Shown here one piece after another: positions 28,993 to 61,507 of a DNA stretch of 64,000 bases (positions within the stretch are counted from its first letter, which is position 1; each line of letters starts with the position of its first letter). The stretch is from a virus. The DNA is taken from positions 1 through 64,000 of IMG/VR virus record IMGVR_UViG_3300049460_000157. One strand, 5' to 3'. The position numbers and the translations under genes were made by a program. Below the pieces are notes generated by a model that did not search any database, was not told where the DNA came from, and worked only from the letters and a program-made list of their open reading frames with translations.

Positions 28993-29177
28993 GCAACGCA
29001 GCCATCAAAGAGGACTTCATCCTCGAATCGGCCTATGGCCACAAGATCATGAGCTTCCCGACTGCGGAGAAAGCTCGTGAGTGGGCCGAACAGCGCCGTG
29101 AGACAGCCAAGGGTGTCATCCCGGCTGTGCGTCTGGTCAAGAAAACCGTCATCGAAGAGGAAATGGGCCATGTCTGA
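28989..29177 (+). CDS. Hypothetical protein
   Basis: 62 aa, overlapping start/stop with neighbours. Confidence 0.6.
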   Translation: MSNAAIKEDFILESAYGHKIMSFPTAEKAREWAEQRRETAKGVIPAVRLVKKTVIEEEMGHV

Positions 29178-30000
29178 TTCCGGCATTCAAGCAAAGCGTG
29201 CTGCACACCAGATCGAACTCGAGCGGCTCTTCAGCAAGAACCAGCTCATGCAGCGGATCCGGGCCGAATTCAGCGAGTGTGCTGCGTTCGACTTCAAGGT
29301 TTATCTGAAGGAGCAGGACATCCCCGAAGACTTCGGCATCGAGCTGCTCGCCCAGATGGCGCTGCACAAGCGTGCTGACCTGCCGACCATGGTTGGCTGT
29401 CTGCGCCACCTGTGCGCCACCTCACAGGAATGTGCTGACCTGCTGCTCAAGTGTGCGATGGCGGATCTGATGGACTGGTCCCCTACCCTGCGCATCTTCG
29501 TGGTCAAATTCACGATCAGTGCTGATGTGCAGACTGACATCGACCGGTTCCAGTATCCGCTGCCGATGGTCGTCGAGCCCAAGGAAGTGAAGTCCAACAA
29601 GCAGTCAGGCTACTTCCTGAACAACAACAGCATCATCCTGAAGAACAACCACCATGACGATGATGTGTGTCTCGACCACATCAACCGCATGAACCGTGTG
29701 AAGTTCAAAGTCAACTTCGACACGGCCAGCATGATCAAGAACCAGTGGAGGAACCTTGACAAGCCCAAGGATGGAGAAACAACAGCGGACTTCGAACGGC
29801 GAGTACGCGCTTTCAACAAATACGACAAGACTGCTCATGATGTCATCGGCGTACTTATTCAGCACGGAAACGAGTTCCACAGTACCCACAGGTACTGCAA
29901 ACGTGGCCGGACCTATTGCCAGGGATATCACGTCAACTACCAGGGAACAGCCTGGAACAAAGCCGTGATCGAGTTCGCGGCCGGCGAGGTGACGAGGTGA
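29170..30000 (+). CDS. RNA polymerase II subunit 1 (N4 gp15-like)
   Basis: 'LERLFSKNQ', 'QYPLPMVVEP', 'KRGRTYCQGYHVNYQG..WNKAVIEF'. Confidence 0.9.
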   Translation: MSDSGIQAKRAAHQIELERLFSKNQLMQRIRAEFSECAAFDFKVYLKEQDIPEDFGIELLAQMALHKRADLPTMVGCLRHLCATSQECADLLLKCAMADLMDWSPTLRIFVVKFTISADVQTDIDRFQYPLPMVVEPKEVKSNKQSGYFLNNNSIILKNNHHDDDVCLDHINRMNRVKFKVNFDTASMIKNQWRNLDKPKDGETTADFERRVRAFNKYDKTAHDVIGVLIQHGNEFHSTHRYCKRGRTYCQGYHVNYQGTAWNKAVIEFAAGEVTR

Positions 30001-30804: not shown

Positions 30805-30930
30805 CTGAACGAAACGGCAAGGAAGACTCCTTCCAATCAACCAAGCAGTCCACCTTCCAAGTAACCAAGAAACGAGGGAGCCATCCCTCCTTCTATCCTT
30901 GGTTCCCTCCTTCACTCGCTCCTCTCTTTG
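30805..30930. repeat. Candidate centromere/operator (parS-like) tract upstream of parA
   Basis: Non-coding, degenerate 4-bp periodicity (ccaa/ggaa/cctt/tcca) with orientation switch; contains ccttggttcc. Confidence 0.6.
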
Positions 30931-30993
30931 AGACTTGCATCCCTCCGGGATTGGTTTACCGTATACGGTTGAACCAACCACTCCGGAGTTCAC

Positions 30994-31638
30994 ATGAAAA
31001 CAATCGTCTTCTCCTGCCTGAAGGGCGGGAGTGGCAAGACCACGCATTCCGCACATCTGGCCGTCGCTCTTGAGGCGATGGGCAAGGGTCCGGTCGTCAC
31101 CATGGACCTGGATCCGCAAGGCTCCTTCAGTGACTGGTGGAACGATCGCAAAGCCGACACACCGGTCTTCGCCATGGTCGAGGACATCAAGGCATTCCCG
31201 AAGAAACATGCAGCGCTGGTCGAGGCGGGGTTCGAGTATTGCGTGGTCGACACGCCGCCGCAGAATGCGGCCATCAACGAGGCTGCTGTCGAGGCCGCCG
31301 ACCTGGTGATCATCCCGGTCAAGCACTCCCCTCACGACATCCGGGCAGCGGTTACCACGGTTCAGCTCTGTGAGCGACTGAAGAAGAAGTTCTTCTTTCT
31401 GCTCAATGAGACCAACGGCAAGGGTGTGACGCTGGACGCCACACGTAACCTCGCCGCCATGGGACCGGTGATCCCGCATGCGGTGCCCAAGCTCAATGGC
31501 TACTGGCAGTCGATGATCGACGGCCGCACGTTCAGGGAGATGAACAAGGGCACCGGCGCCATCGTCGTGGAGCAGGTCGCCCAGTTTATCGTGGGCCAGT
31601 TCGAGAAGCCCGTAAAGAAGGAGAAAGCCTATGTCTAG
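30994..31638 (+). CDS. parA: ParA Walker-type partition ATPase (short, type Ib/ParF-like)
   Basis: 214 aa; deviant Walker A 'KGGSGKTT', 'DLDPQGS', 'VVDTPP', 'ADLVIIPV'; no N-terminal HTH. Confidence 0.95.
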   Translation: MKTIVFSCLKGGSGKTTHSAHLAVALEAMGKGPVVTMDLDPQGSFSDWWNDRKADTPVFAMVEDIKAFPKKHAALVEAGFEYCVVDTPPQNAAINEAAVEAADLVIIPVKHSPHDIRAAVTTVQLCERLKKKFFFLLNETNGKGVTLDATRNLAAMGPVIPHAVPKLNGYWQSMIDGRTFREMNKGTGAIVVEQVAQFIVGQFEKPVKKEKAYV

Positions 31639-31807
31639 GACGCAAAGCGCAGAAATGGCACTCAATCCACAGCGCTGGACATCTGCCAGCACTAGCCCGG
31701 CAGAAAATGGCGGCTTTGTTGCCTACGGTGACTACCTCACCCTGCGTCGCATGTACGAGGATGTGAAGGCTGAGCTCGATGTCTTGAAGGAGAAGGACCA
31801 TGTCTAG
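31631..31807 (+). CDS. 58-aa ORF inside par operon
   Basis: MSRTQSAEM...KEKDHV*; AAGGAG RBS; overlaps parA stop and next start. Confidence 0.55.
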   Translation: MSRTQSAEMALNPQRWTSASTSPAENGGFVAYGDYLTLRRMYEDVKAELDVLKEKDHV

Positions 31808-32132
31808 GCCATCACTGGATGCGGTCATCACACGCAAGGGAGCAGCAGCGCCAGCCAGCCTTGAGGCCAAGGAACCAAGTAAGGAAGCAACCGGGGAGGT
31901 ATCCAAGGAGACTTCTAACCAAGGAGCCAAGGAAGAAAGGAAGCGTGCCTGGCATCAGCCGGGGCAGGAAGAGTGGAAGAAGACCAACTACGAGATGCCG
32001 TTGCGGGTGCAGACCAAGCTCAAGGAAATGAAGAACTGGGGATACATCCCGAATGTGTACAAGTTCGTGGCCGAAGCCGTCGAGAAGGAGATCGACAAGG
32101 TCATCGCCAAGGCCGAGAAGGAGGGCTTCTGA
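31800..32132 (+). CDS. Centromere-binding partner (ParG/ParB type Ib-like, probable ribbon-helix-helix)
   Basis: 110 aa; flexible N-terminus with 'RKGAA'; C-terminal 'WKKTNYEMP-LRVQTKLKEM...VYKFVAEAVEKEI' strand-helix-helix; downstream of parA. Confidence 0.7.
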   Translation: MSRPSLDAVITRKGAAAPASLEAKEPSKEATGEVSKETSNQGAKEERKRAWHQPGQEEWKKTNYEMPLRVQTKLKEMKNWGYIPNVYKFVAEAVEKEIDKVIAKAEKEGF

Positions 32133-32722
32133 TGACTGCCGTGAGTGAGGAAGAGGAACAGCAGTTTGAGCTGTTTCAGGCCGAGACGACCTGGTTCCAT
32201 ATCTTCAGATCCATGATGGACAGTGGCGACGCAGCCAGGATGGGCGGCAACGCCTTCATGATCTACTGCATCATCAAGGGCCACACGAACTTCAGGACGG
32301 GCAGGGCATTCCCCTCGATCGATACCATCATCGAGAAGTCCGGCCTGTCCAAGTCTCAGGTGCTGCGCGAGCTGTCCACCCTGGAGGACATGGGCTACAT
32401 CACCCGAGCCAGGGAAGGGCGCAAGAACGTCTACACGCTCAGGGAGAAGATCGGCATCAGCGATGACAAGGGCCGGCCCATAGCGGACGCTACGTGGGAT
32501 TACGTGCCCGATGGCGTGAGGACCGCGGTAGCGGAGCTCAAGCACGTCATGATGACCGGCGACTTCAAAGGCGCCAAGATCATCAACATCGAGAACATGA
32601 CGGTGCACTTCAACCAGGCCAACGACAGCTCGGTGCAGATCAACATCCAGCACCTGGTCGACAATATGGATAAGCTCACACCGGAGTTGAAGGAGATTCT
32701 TCTGAGGAATCTCACGAAATAG
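32132..32722 (+). CDS. Winged-HTH replication initiator (Rep-like)
   Basis: 196 aa; 'AFMIYCII...AFPSIDTIIEKSGLSKSQVLRELSTLEDMGYI....GRKNVYTL' initiator-type wHTH; immediately followed by iterons. Confidence 0.75.
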   Translation: MTAVSEEEEQQFELFQAETTWFHIFRSMMDSGDAARMGGNAFMIYCIIKGHTNFRTGRAFPSIDTIIEKSGLSKSQVLRELSTLEDMGYITRAREGRKNVYTLREKIGISDDKGRPIADATWDYVPDGVRTAVAELKHVMMTGDFKGAKIINIENMTVHFNQANDSSVQINIQHLVDNMDKLTPELKEILLRNLTK

Positions 32723-32848
32723 GTGTCATCCATGGCACCAATTCAATAGGTGTCACCGGTGACACGTATCAACCGTGCGTTGTGTCCCCCATTTATAGGT
32801 GTCATCCGTGACACCCTTTACCGGGGAATAGGTGCCACCCATGACACC
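32719..32848. repeat. Four 21-bp palindromic iterons (ATA-GGTGTCA-N4-TGACACC)
   Basis: 32719 ataggtgtcatccatggcacc; 32746 ataggtgtcaccggtgacacg; 32795 ataggtgtcatccgtgacacc; 32828 ataggtgccacccatgacacc. Confidence 0.9.
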
Positions 32849-32849
32849 C

Positions 32850-32920
32850 TAACGAGAAGAGATTTTAAGTTAACAATACATAAAGTTATCCACAGATTAA
32901 GTGGACTACCATGTGGATAA
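32850..32920. promoter_or_regulatory. AT-rich unwinding element and two inverted DnaA boxes (plasmid-type origin)
   Basis: gattttaagttaacaatacataaag; TTATCCACA 32886-32894; TGTGGATAA 32912-32920. Confidence 0.85.
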
Positions 32921-32932
32921 CCAGGAGCGATC

Positions 32933-33181
32933 ATGAGCGATCCGCAGGAACCGAAGAACCTTGTGCTTGAGCGACTCAACCAGGTCATGGCTGAAGTCCA
33001 GGCCATGCGTGCCGAGAACAAACAGATGCATGAGAACCTGCACGACGACATGCGGCAGATCAAGGCCCGCATGACCGCGCTCGAAAAACAGATGGCGATC
33101 ACCAATGAATCGGTGGTGGCCCAGTGGGACACGTTCGACAAGCACGAGAATCGACTACGCAGTCTCGAGACACAAAGCTGA
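32933..33181 (+). CDS. Small coiled-coil protein
   Basis: 82 aa heptad pattern; AGGAG RBS. Confidence 0.7.
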   Translation: MSDPQEPKNLVLERLNQVMAEVQAMRAENKQMHENLHDDMRQIKARMTALEKQMAITNESVVAQWDTFDKHENRLRSLETQS

Positions 33182-33204
33182 TCCGTCAGCCACCGCAGTA
33201 CACC

Positions 33205-33231
33205 GAAAGCCGCCTTCCAGGTGGCTTTTTT
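33205..33231 (+). terminator. Intrinsic terminator upstream of RNAP II subunit 2
   Basis: aaagccgcc-ttcca-ggtggcttt followed by U-run. Confidence 0.7.
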
Positions 33232-33262: not shown

Positions 33263-34456
33263 ATGCAGAAATTCACCGGTATGCAGTACCTCCAGATCGA
33301 CATCGCTTCCAACTACGGGCTGGACAAGAAGACCTGGGACGAGCGTCTTGCCTGGTTCAAGGCCCATGAGGACTGCCTCATGGAGATGCTGGCGACCGCC
33401 GAGACGCCGGCGCTGTACTACGCAGGTGTCAAGGCCTACGAGGCAGCACTGGCAGGGCAGGCGAGTGGCTATCCGGTCTCGCTCGATGCCACGGCATCTG
33501 GCCTGCAGATCCTCGCAGCACTCACCGGCGACCGGTCGGCCGCGGAGCTGTGCAACGTGGTCAGCACCGGCTACCGTGCAGACGCCTACACCGGCGTCTA
33601 CGACCGGATGCTGGTCAAGATCGGGGAGGAGGGCAAGATCAAGCGTACGGACGTGAAGCAGGCCGTGATGACGGCGCTGTACGGCTCCAAGGCTGTGCCG
33701 AAGGAGGTATTCGGTGAAGGCGTCCTTCTGGCTATGTTTTACGACACCATGCAGGAGGTCGCACCGGCCGCCTGGGAGCTCAACGAGGCGTTCCTCGACA
33801 TGTGGAACCCGGAGGCGCTCTGCAACAGCTGGGTGCTGCCGGATAACTTCCACGTCCACGTCAAGGTCATGAGCCAGGTGAAAGAGACAGTGCACTTCCT
33901 GAACGAGCCGTTCGACACGTTCCGCACGGTCAACGCACCGGTCGATGAAGGCCGGTCACTGGGTGCCAACACCATCCACTCACTGGACGGCATGATCGTG
34001 CGCGAGATGAACCGCCGCTGCAACTACGACCGCAACGTGGTCGACCGCGTCTACGCAGCGCTCGACGGCGAGGGCAACGCTGGCCTGGACGAAGACGATG
34101 CCATGGTGATGACGCTGTGGGCGCACTACAAGGAGTCGGGCTACCTGTCAGCCCGCATCCTCGATCACCTGTTTCACGACAACATCGATTTGGTTGACAT
34201 CGCAACGATCCGTGAACTGCTGAATAGTCTCCCGCAGACACCTTTCCAGATCATGACCATCCATGACTGTTTCCGCTGTCTGCCGAACTATGGCAATGAT
34301 CTGCGTGAACAGTACAACCTTCAGTTGCAACTCATTGCGAAGTCTGACCTGCTTCAGTTCCTGATCCGTCAGCTGCTGCAGCGTCAGGTCAACATCAGCA
34401 AGCTCGATCCCGACCTGTGGAAGGACATTGATCAGGCCGAGTACGCACTTAGTTAA
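33263..34456 (+). CDS. RNA polymerase II subunit 2 (N4 gp16-like, T7-type catalytic)
   Basis: 'QYLQIDIASNYGLDK', 'LDATASGLQ' motif A, 'R..VKQAVMT..YGS' motif B, 'TIHDCF' motif C. Confidence 0.93.
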   Translation: MQKFTGMQYLQIDIASNYGLDKKTWDERLAWFKAHEDCLMEMLATAETPALYYAGVKAYEAALAGQASGYPVSLDATASGLQILAALTGDRSAAELCNVVSTGYRADAYTGVYDRMLVKIGEEGKIKRTDVKQAVMTALYGSKAVPKEVFGEGVLLAMFYDTMQEVAPAAWELNEAFLDMWNPEALCNSWVLPDNFHVHVKVMSQVKETVHFLNEPFDTFRTVNAPVDEGRSLGANTIHSLDGMIVREMNRRCNYDRNVVDRVYAALDGEGNAGLDEDDAMVMTLWAHYKESGYLSARILDHLFHDNIDLVDIATIRELLNSLPQTPFQIMTIHDCFRCLPNYGNDLREQYNLQLQLIAKSDLLQFLIRQLLQRQVNISKLDPDLWKDIDQAEYALS

Positions 34457-37261: not shown

Positions 37262-37660
37262 ATGGACACGTCCAGAAGGCTTTCCATTCTGGACAGGGTG
37301 ATGGAGCGGGTCTTCTTCGAGGACCGCGGCTTCATGATCGATGGCAAACCATCACCCTGTCACATCTGGCAGGGACCAACGAGCGGCGACGGCAAAGGAG
37401 GCGGTTACGGCAGGATGAGTCTGAACGGGCAGACGGTGGCGGTCCATCTGGTGGTCTACACCCACCACTTCGGCTACATCCCCAGCACGAAACAGATCGA
37501 TCACCTGTGCAACGTCAGGCTGTGCTGCAACTTTGCTCACCTCGATCTCGTGAGTCACCTGAAGAACCAGAAAAGAAGGGCAGAGCGGCAGCGCATCGCC
37601 GTTAGTAGTACGAAAGGCAATGTGGGCTATCCCACAGAGAGGTATGCGCTGGCTGCGTAA
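37262..37660 (+). CDS. HNH endonuclease (N4 gp22-like)
   Basis: 'CHIWQG', 'GYGRM', 'IDHLCNVRLCCNFAHL...N'. Confidence 0.85.
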   Translation: MDTSRRLSILDRVMERVFFEDRGFMIDGKPSPCHIWQGPTSGDGKGGGYGRMSLNGQTVAVHLVVYTHHFGYIPSTKQIDHLCNVRLCCNFAHLDLVSHLKNQKRRAERQRIAVSSTKGNVGYPTERYALAA

Positions 37661-45746: not shown

Positions 45747-46220
45747 GTGCGTACGCAATTTCATCGATCGGTCAAACGGCCGGTCAAGCTGCCGGCGATC
45801 TTCCGGCACACACCAGACCAGGAACTGAGTCTCAAACTTATCCCGCACGGCCATCTTCAGGCCGTAGTGGACGGCCGCGGTACCGAAGAAGAGTTCCTGA
45901 CTGTCACCTTCCGGGTGATGGTCGGTGGCTCACTCACAGCATTCGCTGACGAAGCAGGCGAGAAAGCACTCGAAGGCGTCTATGTCGATGCACTCAAGGC
46001 ACTCGTTTCTGTGGGTGAACGCTACGAAAGACTCGGCAAGTTCGGCTGTAACGGCGATGAACTGAAGAGTCTGAAGGACGCAATCAACCTGACCGACGAT
46101 CTGCAGGAAGTCACCACCCGCCGACAGCAGGCGGAGATGTACAAACAGGTGATGGGCTTTGTCGGAGGCTTTGCTTTCACGATGAAGAACCTTCGCACAC
46201 TCGTGGGGAAGATGCAGTGA
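45747..46220 (+). CDS. Hypothetical protein
   Basis: 157 aa, GGAG RBS, GTG start. Confidence 0.65.
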   Translation: MRTQFHRSVKRPVKLPAIFRHTPDQELSLKLIPHGHLQAVVDGRGTEEEFLTVTFRVMVGGSLTAFADEAGEKALEGVYVDALKALVSVGERYERLGKFGCNGDELKSLKDAINLTDDLQEVTTRRQQAEMYKQVMGFVGGFAFTMKNLRTLVGKMQ

Positions 46221-46570
46221 CTACCTGTGAGCTGGTGCTGGAGCTTCTCGAGTTCGGGGAGATGACCGTGACCGAGTTGTTTGAGTCCCTTGGCTCCTTT
46301 CCCCGGTCGACCATCGGCAGTGCCGTGGAGAGACTGCATGAGCGCAACCTCATCCACGTCCACTGCTATGAGCGCACCCGTGTCGAGCCGGCACCCGTTT
46401 ACGCACTGGGCGCCGGCAGTGATGCCAGGAAGCCTCCGGCACGGACATCGACGCAGCGTTCCCGCAAGTACCGGGAGAAACACACCGCAGTGGTGCGGGC
46501 AAGACGGGCTGCACGGGATGACAGCAAGTTCCGCCATGTCATCCAGCTGTTGGCACACGTCACCGGTTAA
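46217..46570 (+). CDS. Winged-helix DNA-binding protein
   Basis: 'VLELLE.GEMTVTEL......RSTIGSAVERLHERNLI' wHTH with basic C-terminus. Confidence 0.65.
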   Translation: MTTCELVLELLEFGEMTVTELFESLGSFPRSTIGSAVERLHERNLIHVHCYERTRVEPAPVYALGAGSDARKPPARTSTQRSRKYREKHTAVVRARRAARDDSKFRHVIQLLAHVTG

Positions 46571-59345: not shown

Positions 59346-61507
59346 TTGATCTCACCGGGGTAACCCACCATCCGGCAGTCGAAGAGATTGTCGATGTGCT
59401 CTGCAATAAAACGCAGAACACCGATCGCGGATTCTTCCGCGTCGAAGCCGCCTATTTCCTCGGAAAAATGGCGAGCAACATGCGTGCCCTCGTCGTCACG
59501 CAGGACCGCGGCGAAATCCCGGTGAACATCTACGCACTGGCACTGGCCTCTTCCGGCTACGGCAAGGGCCACTCGGTCCATGTGTTCGAACAGGAATTCA
59601 TGAAGGGCTTTCGCAAGCGCTTCATGGAAGACACGTTGCCAGTGGTGGCCGAGAAGCACCTGAACGAGATGGCCAACCATCGCGCCGGCAAGAACGGCAC
59701 GGATCCAGCGGAGGAATTCGAAGCTCTGCAGGGCGAGTTCAAGCGGGCCGGCGCCTTCCCGTTCACGTTCGACAGTGGCACGCCTCCGGCTGTGAAGCAG
59801 CTACGCCAGAAGCTGCTGCTGGCGAACTGTGGCTCGATCAACCTGCAGATCGATGAGATCGGCTCGAACCTGATCAGCAACATCGACGTGCTGAACCTGT
59901 TCCTGGAGCTGTACGACCAGGGCATCGTCAAGCAGAAGCTCACGAAGAACACGGTCGAGAACACCCGTGGCGAGGAAGTGGACGGCAAGACGCCCACCAA
60001 CATGCTGCTGTTCGGCACGCCTTCGAAGCTGCTCGACGGCGGCCAGACCGAGAACGAGTTCTACTCGTTCCTGGAAACGGGTTACGCACGGCGCTGCCTG
60101 TTCGGCTGGGGCCAGCAGGACCGCAGGGCTTCGCACACCATGTCGGCCGAGGAGATCTACAAGCGCCTCACGCAGCCGACGAACAATGTCGTGGTGCAGC
60201 GCTGGGCGGCGCACTTCCACAAGCTGGCCGACCCGGCCATGTTCGGCTGGAAGATGACCGTCGAAGAGCCGGTGGCGATCGCCCTGCTGCAGTACAAGAT
60301 CCACTGCGAGCAGCTGGCCGAGGCCATGGCCGAGCACGAGGAGATCAAGAAGGCCGAGCTCGGTCACCGCTACTTCAAGGCGCTCAAGCTCGCCGGTGCG
60401 TTTGCATTCACCGACGAGAGCAACGAAGTCGAGATGGAGCATCTGAAGCAGGCCATCCTGCTGGTCGAGGAAAGCGGCACGGCATTCCAGGCGATTCTCA
60501 ACCGGGAAAAGGCCTACGTGAAGCTGGCGAAGTACATCGCCACCTGTGGCCAGGACGTGACCCATGCGGACCTGATGGAGGCGCTGCCGTTCTACAAGTC
60601 CGGCAACGCCGCACGCAACGAGATGATGACGCTGGCCACCGCCTGGGGCTACAAGAAGCACATCGTGGTCAAGAAGTTCTACGTCGACAACATCGAGTTC
60701 TTCAAAGGTGAGACTTTGCAGGAGACGAATCTCGACGAGATCACGGTCTCGTACGGCGAGCACTGGGCCTACAACTACGTGAGTGAGAAGGTGCCGTTCA
60801 GCCAGCTCCACCAGCTCACGCAGGCGGCGCAGGACGATGGCCAGCCCATGCACTGGGTCAACCACAACCTGAAGAACGGCCACCGTGCCGAGGAGAACGT
60901 GTTCCCCGGCTTCAACCTCGTCGCCATCGACGTGGATGGAGGCGTGTCGCTCGCCACCGTGCACGAGCTGCTAAAGGAATACAAGTTCCTGACGTACACG
61001 ACCAAGCGCCACACCGATGAGGAAAACCGCTTCCGGCTGCTGCTGCCGATCAACTACGTCCTGGAACTGGATTCCGATGAGTACAAGGAATTCATGAACA
61101 ACATCATGGAGTGGCTGCCGTTCAAGACGGATGAGTCGGCTAACCAGCGCTCCAAGAAGTGGGAGACCTTTGCTGGCGGCAAGTTCCACTACAGCACCGA
61201 GGGCGAGATCCTCGATGCGCTGCGGTTCATCCCGAAGACATCGAAGAACGAGCAGTACCGCACCGAGATGAAGAAGGTGGAGTCGCTCGACAACCTGGAA
61301 CGCTGGTTCGTGCAGCGCATGGTCACAGGTAGCCGCAACAACCAGATGATCAAGTATGCGCTCGCTCTGGTCGACTCGGGCATGGACCTGATGTCGGTCA
61401 GCAAGCAGGTGCATGCGTTCAACGGCAAGCTGAACAATCCCCTCTCCGAGGAGGAGATCAACAGCACGATCATGACCACGGTGGCCAAGCGCTTCCAGAA
61501 ACAGTAA
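59342..61507 (+). CDS. DNA primase (N4 gp43/dns-like)
   Basis: 'SGYGKG', 'IDEIGSN', 'IDVDGG', 'YTTKRH...RFR', 'GSRNNQM'. Confidence 0.85.
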   Translation: MIDLTGVTHHPAVEEIVDVLCNKTQNTDRGFFRVEAAYFLGKMASNMRALVVTQDRGEIPVNIYALALASSGYGKGHSVHVFEQEFMKGFRKRFMEDTLPVVAEKHLNEMANHRAGKNGTDPAEEFEALQGEFKRAGAFPFTFDSGTPPAVKQLRQKLLLANCGSINLQIDEIGSNLISNIDVLNLFLELYDQGIVKQKLTKNTVENTRGEEVDGKTPTNMLLFGTPSKLLDGGQTENEFYSFLETGYARRCLFGWGQQDRRASHTMSAEEIYKRLTQPTNNVVVQRWAAHFHKLADPAMFGWKMTVEEPVAIALLQYKIHCEQLAEAMAEHEEIKKAELGHRYFKALKLAGAFAFTDESNEVEMEHLKQAILLVEESGTAFQAILNREKAYVKLAKYIATCGQDVTHADLMEALPFYKSGNAARNEMMTLATAWGYKKHIVVKKFYVDNIEFFKGETLQETNLDEITVSYGEHWAYNYVSEKVPFSQLHQLTQAAQDDGQPMHWVNHNLKNGHRAEENVFPGFNLVAIDVDGGVSLATVHELLKEYKFLTYTTKRHTDEENRFRLLLPINYVLELDSDEYKEFMNNIMEWLPFKTDESANQRSKKWETFAGGKFHYSTEGEILDALRFIPKTSKNEQYRTEMKKVESLDNLERWFVQRMVTGSRNNQMIKYALALVDSGMDLMSVSKQVHAFNGKLNNPLSEEEINSTIMTTVAKRFQKQ

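Follow-up and report, generated by a model that had tools for sequence, protein, structure and literature searches.

The stretch of DNA considered here (hereafter, the window) comprises 64 kb, positions 1 to 64,000, of IMG/VR record IMGVR_UViG_3300049460_000157, a single-contig virus record of 74,740 bp whose genome has a GC content of 58.7%. It derives from an N4-like phage, and our subject is a cassette located between the two genes for the subunits of the N4-type RNA polymerase II (RNAPII), here called RNAP1 and RNAP2, in which a small partition ATPase, a candidate replication initiator and the elements of a plasmid-type replication origin lie side by side. Comparison with related loci makes it likely that this cassette allows the phage genome to be inherited as a plasmid. 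The locus contains, from left to right:

29170-30000, plus strand: RNAP1, RNAPII subunit like N4 gp15, left flank of the slot (phrog_2166 'N4-like RNA polymerase', 2.8e-105; RNA polymerase genes of Pseudomonas, Achromobacter and Erwinia N4-like phages match)
30805-30925, no strand: cluster of CCAAG/CTTGG motifs in both orientations, candidate centromere/operator for p110 (4 motifs in the 200 bp upstream of parA vs 0.5 expected)
30934-30979, no strand: 46-nt element with the perfect palindrome ACCGTATACGGT, candidate par promoter/operator, unique in the genome
30994-31638, plus strand: ParA, small partition ATPase of 214 amino acids (aa), type Ib-like, without N-terminal helix-turn-helix (HTH) (AAA_31 2.5e-16, MipZ, VirC1, CbiA; phrog_164)
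31631-31807, plus strand: p58, coupled open reading frame (ORF) of 58 aa, coding status uncertain, beginning with a duplicate of the p110 ribosome-binding site (RBS) and ATGTCTAGG (repeat family D3)
31800-32132, plus strand: p110, ParA partner of 110 aa, with a disordered N-terminal half and a conserved C-terminal strand-helix-helix, adjoining ParA in all modules
32132-32722, plus strand: Rep, 196-aa winged-helix (HTH_36) replication initiator candidate (HTH_36 1.6e-12; phrog_28562 2.7e-31; phrog_270 'replication initiation protein' 5.6e-13; O-like families weak)
32719-32850, no strand: four imperfectly palindromic repeats ATAGGTGYCAYCnnTGRCACC of 21-23 nt, starting at 32719, 32746, 32795 and 32828 (spacing 27, 49 and 33 bp)
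32850-32885, no strand: AT-rich tract, candidate DNA-unwinding element, starting with the conserved CCCTAACGAGAAGAGAT junction (GC 26% at 32850-32899)
32886-32894, plus strand: DnaA box TTATCCACA, exact match
32912-32920, minus strand: DnaA box TTATCCACA inverted, exact match, adjoining the RBS of the downstream gene
32933-33181, plus strand: cc82, clade-specific coiled-coil protein of 82 aa (homologues in related loci L011, 38%, and L029, 67%; weak SlyX match only)
33205-33229, plus strand: intrinsic terminator-like hairpin with an 11-bp stem and T-run, closing the module before RNAP2
33263-34456, plus strand: RNAP2, RNAPII subunit like N4 gp16, right flank of the slot (PF00940 2.4e-19)

The coding part of the cassette consists of four ORFs with overlapping stop and start codons (ATGTCTAG twice, TGATG once); the GC content of the module is 56.2%. 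The original prediction had described here a translationally coupled operon of a short ParA, a partner and a winged-helix initiator, and all three genes are found at the coordinates that it gave; the parA-parG-rep order has to be amended by the fourth coupled ORF, p58. ParA carries the deviant Walker A motif KGGSGKT, and the residues of its Walker A, A' and B motifs are invariant across six homologues. With its small size, a KGGxxK[ST] motif and no N-terminal DNA-binding domain it has the features of the small Walker-type ParA proteins (~200-230 aa) of type Ib systems, and it matches the model NF041546 'ParA family partition ATPase' over its full length at 9e-36, below the cut-off of that model. 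The adjacent p58 exists as an ORF only in this genome, with no homologue in related loci and no match to a Pfam or PHROG family; in the relatives, the partner gene comes straight after parA. The RBS and start regions of p58 and p110 are near-duplicates (GAAGGAGAA.G.C.ATGTCTAGG, region 31612-31811) and, because of this, p58 looks like an insertion or duplication of ~169 bp peculiar to this genome.

The partner p110 finds no match in Pfam, PHROG, NCBIfam or the PDB; a profile search of the PDB gave generic or chance matches only, and an ESM Atlas search gave leads only (a DUF5388 cluster). From the conserved C-terminal strand-helix-helix pattern we infer a ParG/omega-like ribbon-helix-helix (RHH) protein; the small RHH-like partner of the original prediction is present as a coupled and conserved 110-aa gene with a putative RHH fold. 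A predicted complex of two ParA and two p110 chains scored 0.27 vs a mark of 0.32, and counts neither way. Rep has 211 homologues at E<=1e-20.

Downstream of rep the sequence is organized as an iteron-type origin, i.e., at least three repeats of ~20 bp adjacent to the initiator gene, an AT-rich tract and DnaA boxes. The first of the four repeats overlaps the rep stop codon, and all share the core palindrome GGTGTCA-N5-TGACACC. The pattern TAGGTGYCAYCNNTGRCAC occurs in four forward copies, at 32720, 32747, 32796 and 32829, and, as the two most symmetrical ones can also be read in reverse, gives six matches, against 0.11 expected from shuffled sequences. Since the repeats are palindromic and irregularly spaced, binding of Rep as a dimer is suggested. 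The AT-rich tract and the two perfect DnaA boxes that had been predicted are confirmed, and these boxes are the sole exact TTATCCACA sequences in the window.

Upstream of parA, a candidate centromere is marked by the CCAAG/CTTGG cluster, which recurs in the same position in 6/6 homologous modules, including those of non-N4 contigs (3-5 motifs per 200 bp vs 0.5-1.1 expected; p = 5e-4 to 4e-2 per module). A second cluster lies inside the p110 gene in 5/6 modules, and in the window this gene contains 7 motifs vs 0.8 expected. The 46-nt element next to the first cluster is identical to that of L011 and differs by 3 mismatches from that of L029, as read off the printed alignment. The 70 nt preceding the parA start are 86% (L011) and 77% (L029) identical, against 70-74% for the parA coding DNA (70% for L011). 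The clusters, to which p110 would bind, and the 46-nt element are candidate centromere/operator sites; the parS of the original prediction corresponds to the sites upstream of parA, a candidate rather than a proven centromere. Related motifs are dispersed along the genome: the hexamer CCAAGG/CCTTGG occurs 86 times vs 39 +/- 5.9 in dinucleotide shuffles, most densely at 31851-32150, and ACCAAGG occurs 24 times vs 8.2 +/- 2.9, with several CCAAGG copies standing in RBS contexts (GAACCAAGGAG...ATG). Extended Shine-Dalgarno sites, binding sites of the partner and a codon effect are all candidate explanations of the dispersed copies.

How far the cassette is shared was examined with RNAP2 as a query, which gathered 58 N4-like loci from IMG/VR. 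In three of them, L011, L029 and L012, genes for ParA, p110 and Rep, followed by repeats and a DnaA box, occupy the same site between RNAP1 and RNAP2; the divergence of the L012 Rep puts it beyond the reach of a similarity search. By contrast, in 54 other N4-like loci the RNAP1-RNAP2 gap contains neither a ParA-like ORF nor a DnaA box, but small accessory genes over 56-4213 bp. A tree of RNAP2 unites the window, L011, L029 and L012 in one group with a support of 99 in the Shimodaira-Hasegawa-like approximate likelihood ratio test (SH-aLRT). When the sequences of the bacterial strains TF1N1, LZ034LL and SIMBA_049, discussed below, and of a Joint Genome Institute (JGI) contig are added, all bearers of the module fall in one 12-row clade (SH-aLRT 87). 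The ratios of nonsynonymous to synonymous substitution rates (dN/dS) in comparison with L011 and L029 are 0.17-0.28 for ParA, 0.11-0.14 for p110, 0.19-0.31 for Rep and 0.19-0.27 for RNAP2, values that are approximate because dS is near saturation. Judging from these ratios, the cassette is under purifying selection similar to that acting on the essential RNAP2.

The gene cc82, between the origin and RNAP2, is also part of the clade's slot, and L012 has in its place a gene similar in size and position, with no detectable sequence similarity. The terminator-like hairpin before RNAP2 is kept in position in the window, in L012 (L012:6940-6975) and in the TF1N1 contig described below (G369:C7 62335-62375), the sequences of the last two being nearly the same; this conservation points to RNAP2 as the start of a transcription unit of its own in the clade.

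The most informative relative comes from a cultured bacterium. A search for RNAP2 across 396 Burkholderiaceae species genomes gave one match, contig C7 of Caballeronia sp. TF1N1 (G369:C7; GCA_022878925), the strain being recognized by an exact protein match. This contig of 79,569 bp is collinear end to end with the window genome and has no bacterial flanks, and it can be taken as a closed circle because a helicase gene runs unbroken across its end-to-start junction. The partition genes, for ParA (63% identical) and the partner, are retained between RNAP1 and RNAP2; where the HTH_36 cassette would be expected, a Rep_3 replicon is found at 59480-61505 (L110:19480 to L111:1505), consisting of an AT-rich tract, five direct iterons of ~22 bp (ATTGGGGCAA...), a DnaA box and an initiator with both domains of the Rep_3 family (Rep3_N 2.5e-35, Rep3_C 2e-18). 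The original prediction had proposed to look for ParA and Rep between gp15 and gp16 homologues of other phages, and this is what L011, L029, L012 and TF1N1 present, at the same site, with Rep_3 as the initiator in TF1N1. On the RNAP2 tree TF1N1 is the sister of L012 (SH-aLRT 100), which has a highly diverged Rep of HTH_36 type with CCATCACCCATGATGG repeats. As these two sisters have different initiators, the initiator cassette must have been exchanged among very close relatives, with slot and par genes left in place; and because a non-orthologous plasmid replicon fills the same place, it can be argued that the function of the slot is plasmid-type replication. The strain itself, a symbiont of the bug gut, is in culture and has served in experiments (PMC11995993, PMC11893276).

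Further relatives are present in strain assemblies. Rep homologues of 81-85% identity are found, under NCBI/RefSeq accessions, on phage-sized contigs in three strains: Caballeronia sp. LZ034LL (77,218 bp), Paraburkholderia sp. SIMBA_054 (77,653 bp) and Paraburkholderia sp. SIMBA_049 (76,468 bp). In LZ034LL and SIMBA_049, N4-like RNAP2 homologues are located on contigs of the same length as the Rep contigs. Since members of the clade sit in Caballeronia and Paraburkholderia assemblies, its host range is the Burkholderiaceae. A circular replicon in a bacterial isolate assembly, which had been suggested as a check, has in this way been found for a relative, the closed 79.6-kb circle of TF1N1, together with the LZ034LL and SIMBA contigs, but not for the window genome itself.

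A parallel case comes from Acinetobacter. The Schitoviridae phage vB_IME_Ab2712 (OK149216, a phage record marked 'UNVERIFIED' and unannotated) encodes an RNAP2 38% identical to that of the window, a ParA (35%), a small ORF and an HTH_36 Rep (40%). Its sequence agrees at 99% identity, across the 12.5 kb that were compared, with pRBH2-3 (NZ_CP110465), a circular plasmid of 75,126 bp from A. baumannii RBH2, a clinical isolate. This plasmid encodes an N4-gp56-type capsid protein, an ORF of 3646 aa with the size of a virion RNA polymerase (vRNAP), RNAP2, a serine recombinase and a lipoprotein of the Ltp type. No other among 72,556 PLSDB plasmids has an N4-like RNAP2, and the deposition of this sequence also as a phage is the sole hint of virion formation. 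The cassette of pRBH2-3 lies ~16 kb from RNAP2 and on the opposite strand; because this site differs from that of the window clade and ParA and Rep are only 35% and 40% identical, it must have been acquired independently. The serine recombinase of the plasmid has 210 aa, and beside it and the Ltp-family lipoprotein we noticed, in the structural block, a 749-aa protein annotated as 'ParB' (L105:4215-4847, L105:15115-15660 and L106:8104-10353); lipoproteins of the Ltp family are of a type known from superinfection exclusion in temperate phages. Membership in the 'AB' group of Acinetobacter phage-plasmids was considered and rejected, those ~110-kb elements being of a different kind, and a blastn search of plasmids with the cassette returned short ParA matches only.

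The Rep family extends beyond N4-like phages, and its relatives with HTH_36 keep the order of rep, palindromic repeats, CCCTAAC-type junction, AT-rich tract and DnaA box. In particular, L002-L011 and bacterial homologues share the junction and the AT-rich tract, and at least one exact DnaA box is found at the same position in all viral relatives. The core of the repeats is GGTGTCA..TGACACC in the window and L006-L010, AGGTCTC..GAGACC in L002-L005 and L029, GGTGAC..GTCAC in L011 and CCATCACCCATGATGG in L012; core and Rep protein thus vary in step. The same origin layout accompanies Rep homologues that are encoded in bacterial chromosomes at 36-55% identity, often with TTATNCACA-type boxes. Among them are a Stutzerimonas island in which Rep is accompanied by a P4-type integrase and a cargo of MmeI-type restriction-modification, PDDEXK and helicase genes (L084:8074-16976), and a Methylophilaceae integrative and conjugative element (ICE) with an integrase, ParA/ParB-KorB, and VirB4 and TrbL of a type IV secretion system (L095:4707-16779). 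Since they are found in an integrase-bearing island and in an ICE, Rep and its origin are best regarded as a replicon family of mobile elements; as far as we have found, the combination of an HTH_36 Rep with palindromic repeats and DnaA boxes is an apparently uncharacterized replicon type common to phages, genomic islands and ICEs.

The genomic background of the cassette is that of a complete N4-like phage. The RNA polymerase genes have 65-68% DNA identity to those of N4-like phages of Pseudomonas, Achromobacter, Erwinia and others; a vRNAP ORF of 3366 aa is located at genome positions 64532-74632 on the minus strand; and the replication set encoded by the phage includes DNA polymerase, Dda-like helicase, primase, exonuclease and single-stranded DNA-binding protein (SSB), beside rIIA/B. 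The giant vRNAP, the split RNAPII genes, two opposed gene blocks and the N4-type replication genes place it in the Schitoviridae, in agreement with the claim of an otherwise intact N4-like genome with its own replication proteins. Likewise in agreement, no integrase was seen among the ~40 ORFs scanned, in a genome that was not exhaustively annotated; a phage gene set with plasmid replication and partition genes and no integrase is the gene content expected of a phage-plasmid. Two further genes of the window were noted: an HNH endonuclease gene (HNH_3, 9e-14) among the middle genes at 37262-37660, 74% identical in TF1N1 C7, and a gene at 46217-46570 for a small winged-helix protein with a weak TrmB-like match (3e-4). 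The latter protein is not conserved in TF1N1 C7, but L002, a viral contig outside the N4 group with the same Rep family, encodes a homologue of 28% identity.

Taking these observations together, we consider it probable, at roughly 0.7, that the cassette is a maintenance module which lets the phage genome be inherited as an episome and which has been kept since its acquisition by the ancestor of the clade. According to this model, Rep dimers would bind the four palindromic repeats directly 3' of rep and, together with host DnaA at the two flanking boxes, would open the AT-rich tract and load the host replisome; the resulting low-copy theta replication would be independent of the polymerase, primase and SSB of the phage. 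ParA and p110 would form a type Ib-like partition pair acting on both sets of CCAAG/CTTGG clusters, the one before parA and the one within the p110 gene, and the circularized phage genome would be inherited extrachromosomally, as a phage-plasmid or at least in a stable carrier state. The DNA binding, the dependence on DnaA, the copy number, the silencing of lytic functions and the inducibility of the element are all features that we infer. Plasmid persistence of this N4-like lineage is well supported by the comparison of genomes, not shown for the window genome; what had originally been proposed, a second, host-dependent replicon and extrachromosomal persistence, gains support from the conservation of clade and site, the co-variation of Rep and repeats, the Rep_3 replacement, the strain contigs and pRBH2-3.

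Several observations weigh against the maintenance module. As the window was taken from a virus record, it offers no view of this genome in a plasmid state; terminally redundant linear phage DNA, too, can assemble into closed circles, and the phage contigs of the strain assemblies might reflect infection in a carrier state instead of a regulated prophage. As regards the initiator, AlphaFold models of Rep built from 8 and 25 sequences (predicted local distance difference test, pLDDT, 57.7 and 66.6) are confident only for one winged helix and, in Foldseek, the model has no PDB match at E<=1e-3; its top rows are generic winged-helix regulators, TubR, AspA and, weakly, the N-domains of staphylococcal RepA, and a sequence-profile search of the PDB gave generic or chance matches only. 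Membership of the window Rep in the Rep_3 family was tried and rejected, because the protein has HTH_36 only and neither Rep3_N (the first winged helix, WH1) nor Rep3_C (the second, WH2). The repeats, palindromic and irregularly spaced, are unlike classical iterons; of the four 21-bp iterons originally described, the number is borne out (with lengths of 21-23 nt) but not the classical arrangement. Moreover, a scan of the module revealed no sigma-70 consensus promoter for the operon, so that its expression by host RNA polymerase in the plasmid state is at most presumptive. Finally, no repressor, immunity gene, integrase or multimer-resolution recombinase was recognized among the ~40 ORFs scanned, which include Pfam scans of ~30 further ORFs.

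A bolder scenario can be built on the same data, and as a whole we regard it as doubtful: the clade might form plasmid lysogens with no classical repressor, the dependence on virion RNA polymerase silencing, in daughter cells, the genomes that escape the first lytic commitment, so that host-read par and rep alone would be active, while the Rep-repeat complex and the terminator, situated between the two RNAPII subunit genes, would gate the middle programme and the swapping of Rep and iterons would reflect an incompatibility arms race.

Among the alternatives to a maintenance module, the one that survives best, although we judge it unlikely, is a module that serves the lytic cycle only. In such a case Rep, repeats and DnaA would enlist the host replisome for an initial theta round or an early boost of replication and the ParA pair would position replicating DNA, with no heritable plasmid; partition genes in some virulent SPO1-like phages have indeed been suggested to position replicating phage DNA. 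The location of the cassette in the early/middle region, on the early strand and among typical early accessory genes, would suit this, as would the nature of the RNAP1-RNAP2 gap, a variable accessory slot (56-4213 bp) in other N4-like phages, and the failure to find either a host-type promoter or a repressor. We also count in its favour the warning by Pfeifer et al. (2021; PMC7969092) against taking partition genes in virulent Bacillus phages as a sure sign of a plasmid state. However, the phage has a complete replisome of its own, a low-copy partition system has no obvious use in a burst, and the Rep cassette has been exchanged for a canonical plasmid Rep_3 replicon; furthermore, the relatives are separate phage-sized contigs in strain assemblies, and the Acinetobacter analogue was deposited as a plasmid of a clinical isolate.

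It is still less probable that the cassette is a selfish or competitive passenger, i.e., a plasmid-derived hitch-hiker, or a device whose iterons and Rep interfere with plasmids or phage-plasmids of the same incompatibility, by which the phage itself is not maintained. The mobility of the cassette is evident: N4-like and non-N4 contigs have viral Reps that intermingle in a single clade of the Rep tree (95/95), the cassette is ~70% identical in unrelated integrase-bearing viral contigs of 31-47 kb (67-72% to the window's in non-N4 viral contigs with tail-fibre and scaffold genes), and the sisters L012 and TF1N1, with their different initiators, testify to fast exchange of Rep and repeats. Swapping of this kind is, however, also expected from incompatibility-driven diversification of real replicons, and the occupation of one site across a diverged clade with dN/dS values like those of core genes, as well as the presence of a complete par together with a complete origin, which exceeds the needs of interference, speak against a passenger. 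In one of the non-N4 contigs, the 44-kb IMG/VR contig L008, a tyrosine recombinase gene lies ~0.9 kb upstream of the ParA-partner-Rep cassette (L008:5190-8561); the recombinase of L008-type contigs could be an integrase or a multimer resolvase.

Marginally less probable again is that the winged-helix protein is mainly a transcription regulator, its four operators and the terminator gating read-through into cc82 and RNAP2, and ParA having an unrelated role. Palindromic sites and a single confident winged helix do resemble those of ArsR/MarR-type repressors, 'ArsR family regulator' is the JGI name for homologues, and the repeats are directly upstream of cc82 and RNAP2. Against this, the AT-rich tract and exact DnaA boxes stay with the repeats in the ICE and in the genomic island, where no RNAP2 follows, the PHROG matches are to replication initiators, and the slot holds a true Rep_3 replicon in TF1N1; a dual role of Rep, as initiator and roadblock, is conceivable. 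Lastly, a misjoining of plasmid DNA into the phage contig has a negligible probability: the exact 127-bp overlap that the assembler left at the contig ends indicates a short-read de Bruijn assembly and could raise the suspicion of a chimera, but the GC content of the module is near that of the genome and the RNAP1-module-RNAP2 junctions recur in at least five independent, diverged assemblies (L011, L029, L012, TF1N1 C7 and the window), and the chimera was rejected.

N4-like phages are textbook virulent phages, and they have been widely proposed for therapy and biocontrol as unable to lysogenize. The presence of a conserved plasmid replicon with par in a whole clade challenges this assumption for N4-like phages. 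In the literature we found no description of N4-like or Schitoviridae phage-plasmids; the phage-plasmid state is unexpected in this lineage, which would add a podovirus lineage to the phage-plasmids. The system is also tractable, at least one carrier strain (TF1N1) being cultured, and may serve to study how a phage dependent on an injected RNA polymerase enters and leaves dormancy.

Comparable situations have been reported in other phages. Surveys of phage-plasmids include few podoviruses (PMC7969092). In crAssphage (Carjivirus communis), a presumed-lytic podovirus lineage is reported to persist extrachromosomally with plasmid-type genes and two origins (PMC10983915); it belongs to an unrelated order, has other plasmid genes (repL, a toxin-antitoxin system and mobC, as listed in the methods) and, unlike the window clade, is backed by experimental culture data. 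A strictly lytic life is not the rule in every N4-like lineage: Zheng et al. (2023; PMC10654107) described N4-like proviruses with integrases, transposases or diversity-generating retroelements and chromosomal integration, which differ from the present case in that plasmids or partition are not mentioned there.

As for the single components, the partition genes resemble ParF-ParG-parH of TP228 and delta-omega of pSM19035, in which a ParA of ~210 aa without N-terminal HTH is followed by a partner of ~100 aa with a flexible N-terminal half and a short strand-helix-helix segment at its C terminus, and short repeated motifs precede the operon as in type Ib systems; unlike these, p110 has no detectable sequence relation to ParG or omega, and a second motif cluster lies inside the partner gene. 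With the Rep_3 iteron replicons (pPS10, pSC101, F, R6K) the origin shares an initiator gene, ~4-5 repeats of 21-22 bp, an AT-rich tract and one or more DnaA boxes, but the initiator of the window is of the HTH_36 type, its repeats are palindromic and irregular, and the origin is 3' of rep. A winged-helix initiator and four dyad-symmetric repeats beside an AT-rich tract recall lambda O and ori-lambda, to which the PHROG 'O-like' matches are weak; ori-lambda lies inside the O gene and works via P and DnaB, without DnaA boxes or par. The plasmid prophage P1 has a large type Ia ParA, ParB, parS, a RepA unrelated to HTH_36, C1 immunity and Cre-lox, none of which was found here, and it is a myovirus transcribed by host polymerase, whereas N4-like phages depend on their virion RNA polymerase. 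What the window clade has in common with P1 is the general plan of a tailed phage that combines lytic replication with an initiator, DnaA boxes on either side of a repeat origin, and next to these a par operon for low-copy inheritance, all without integration.

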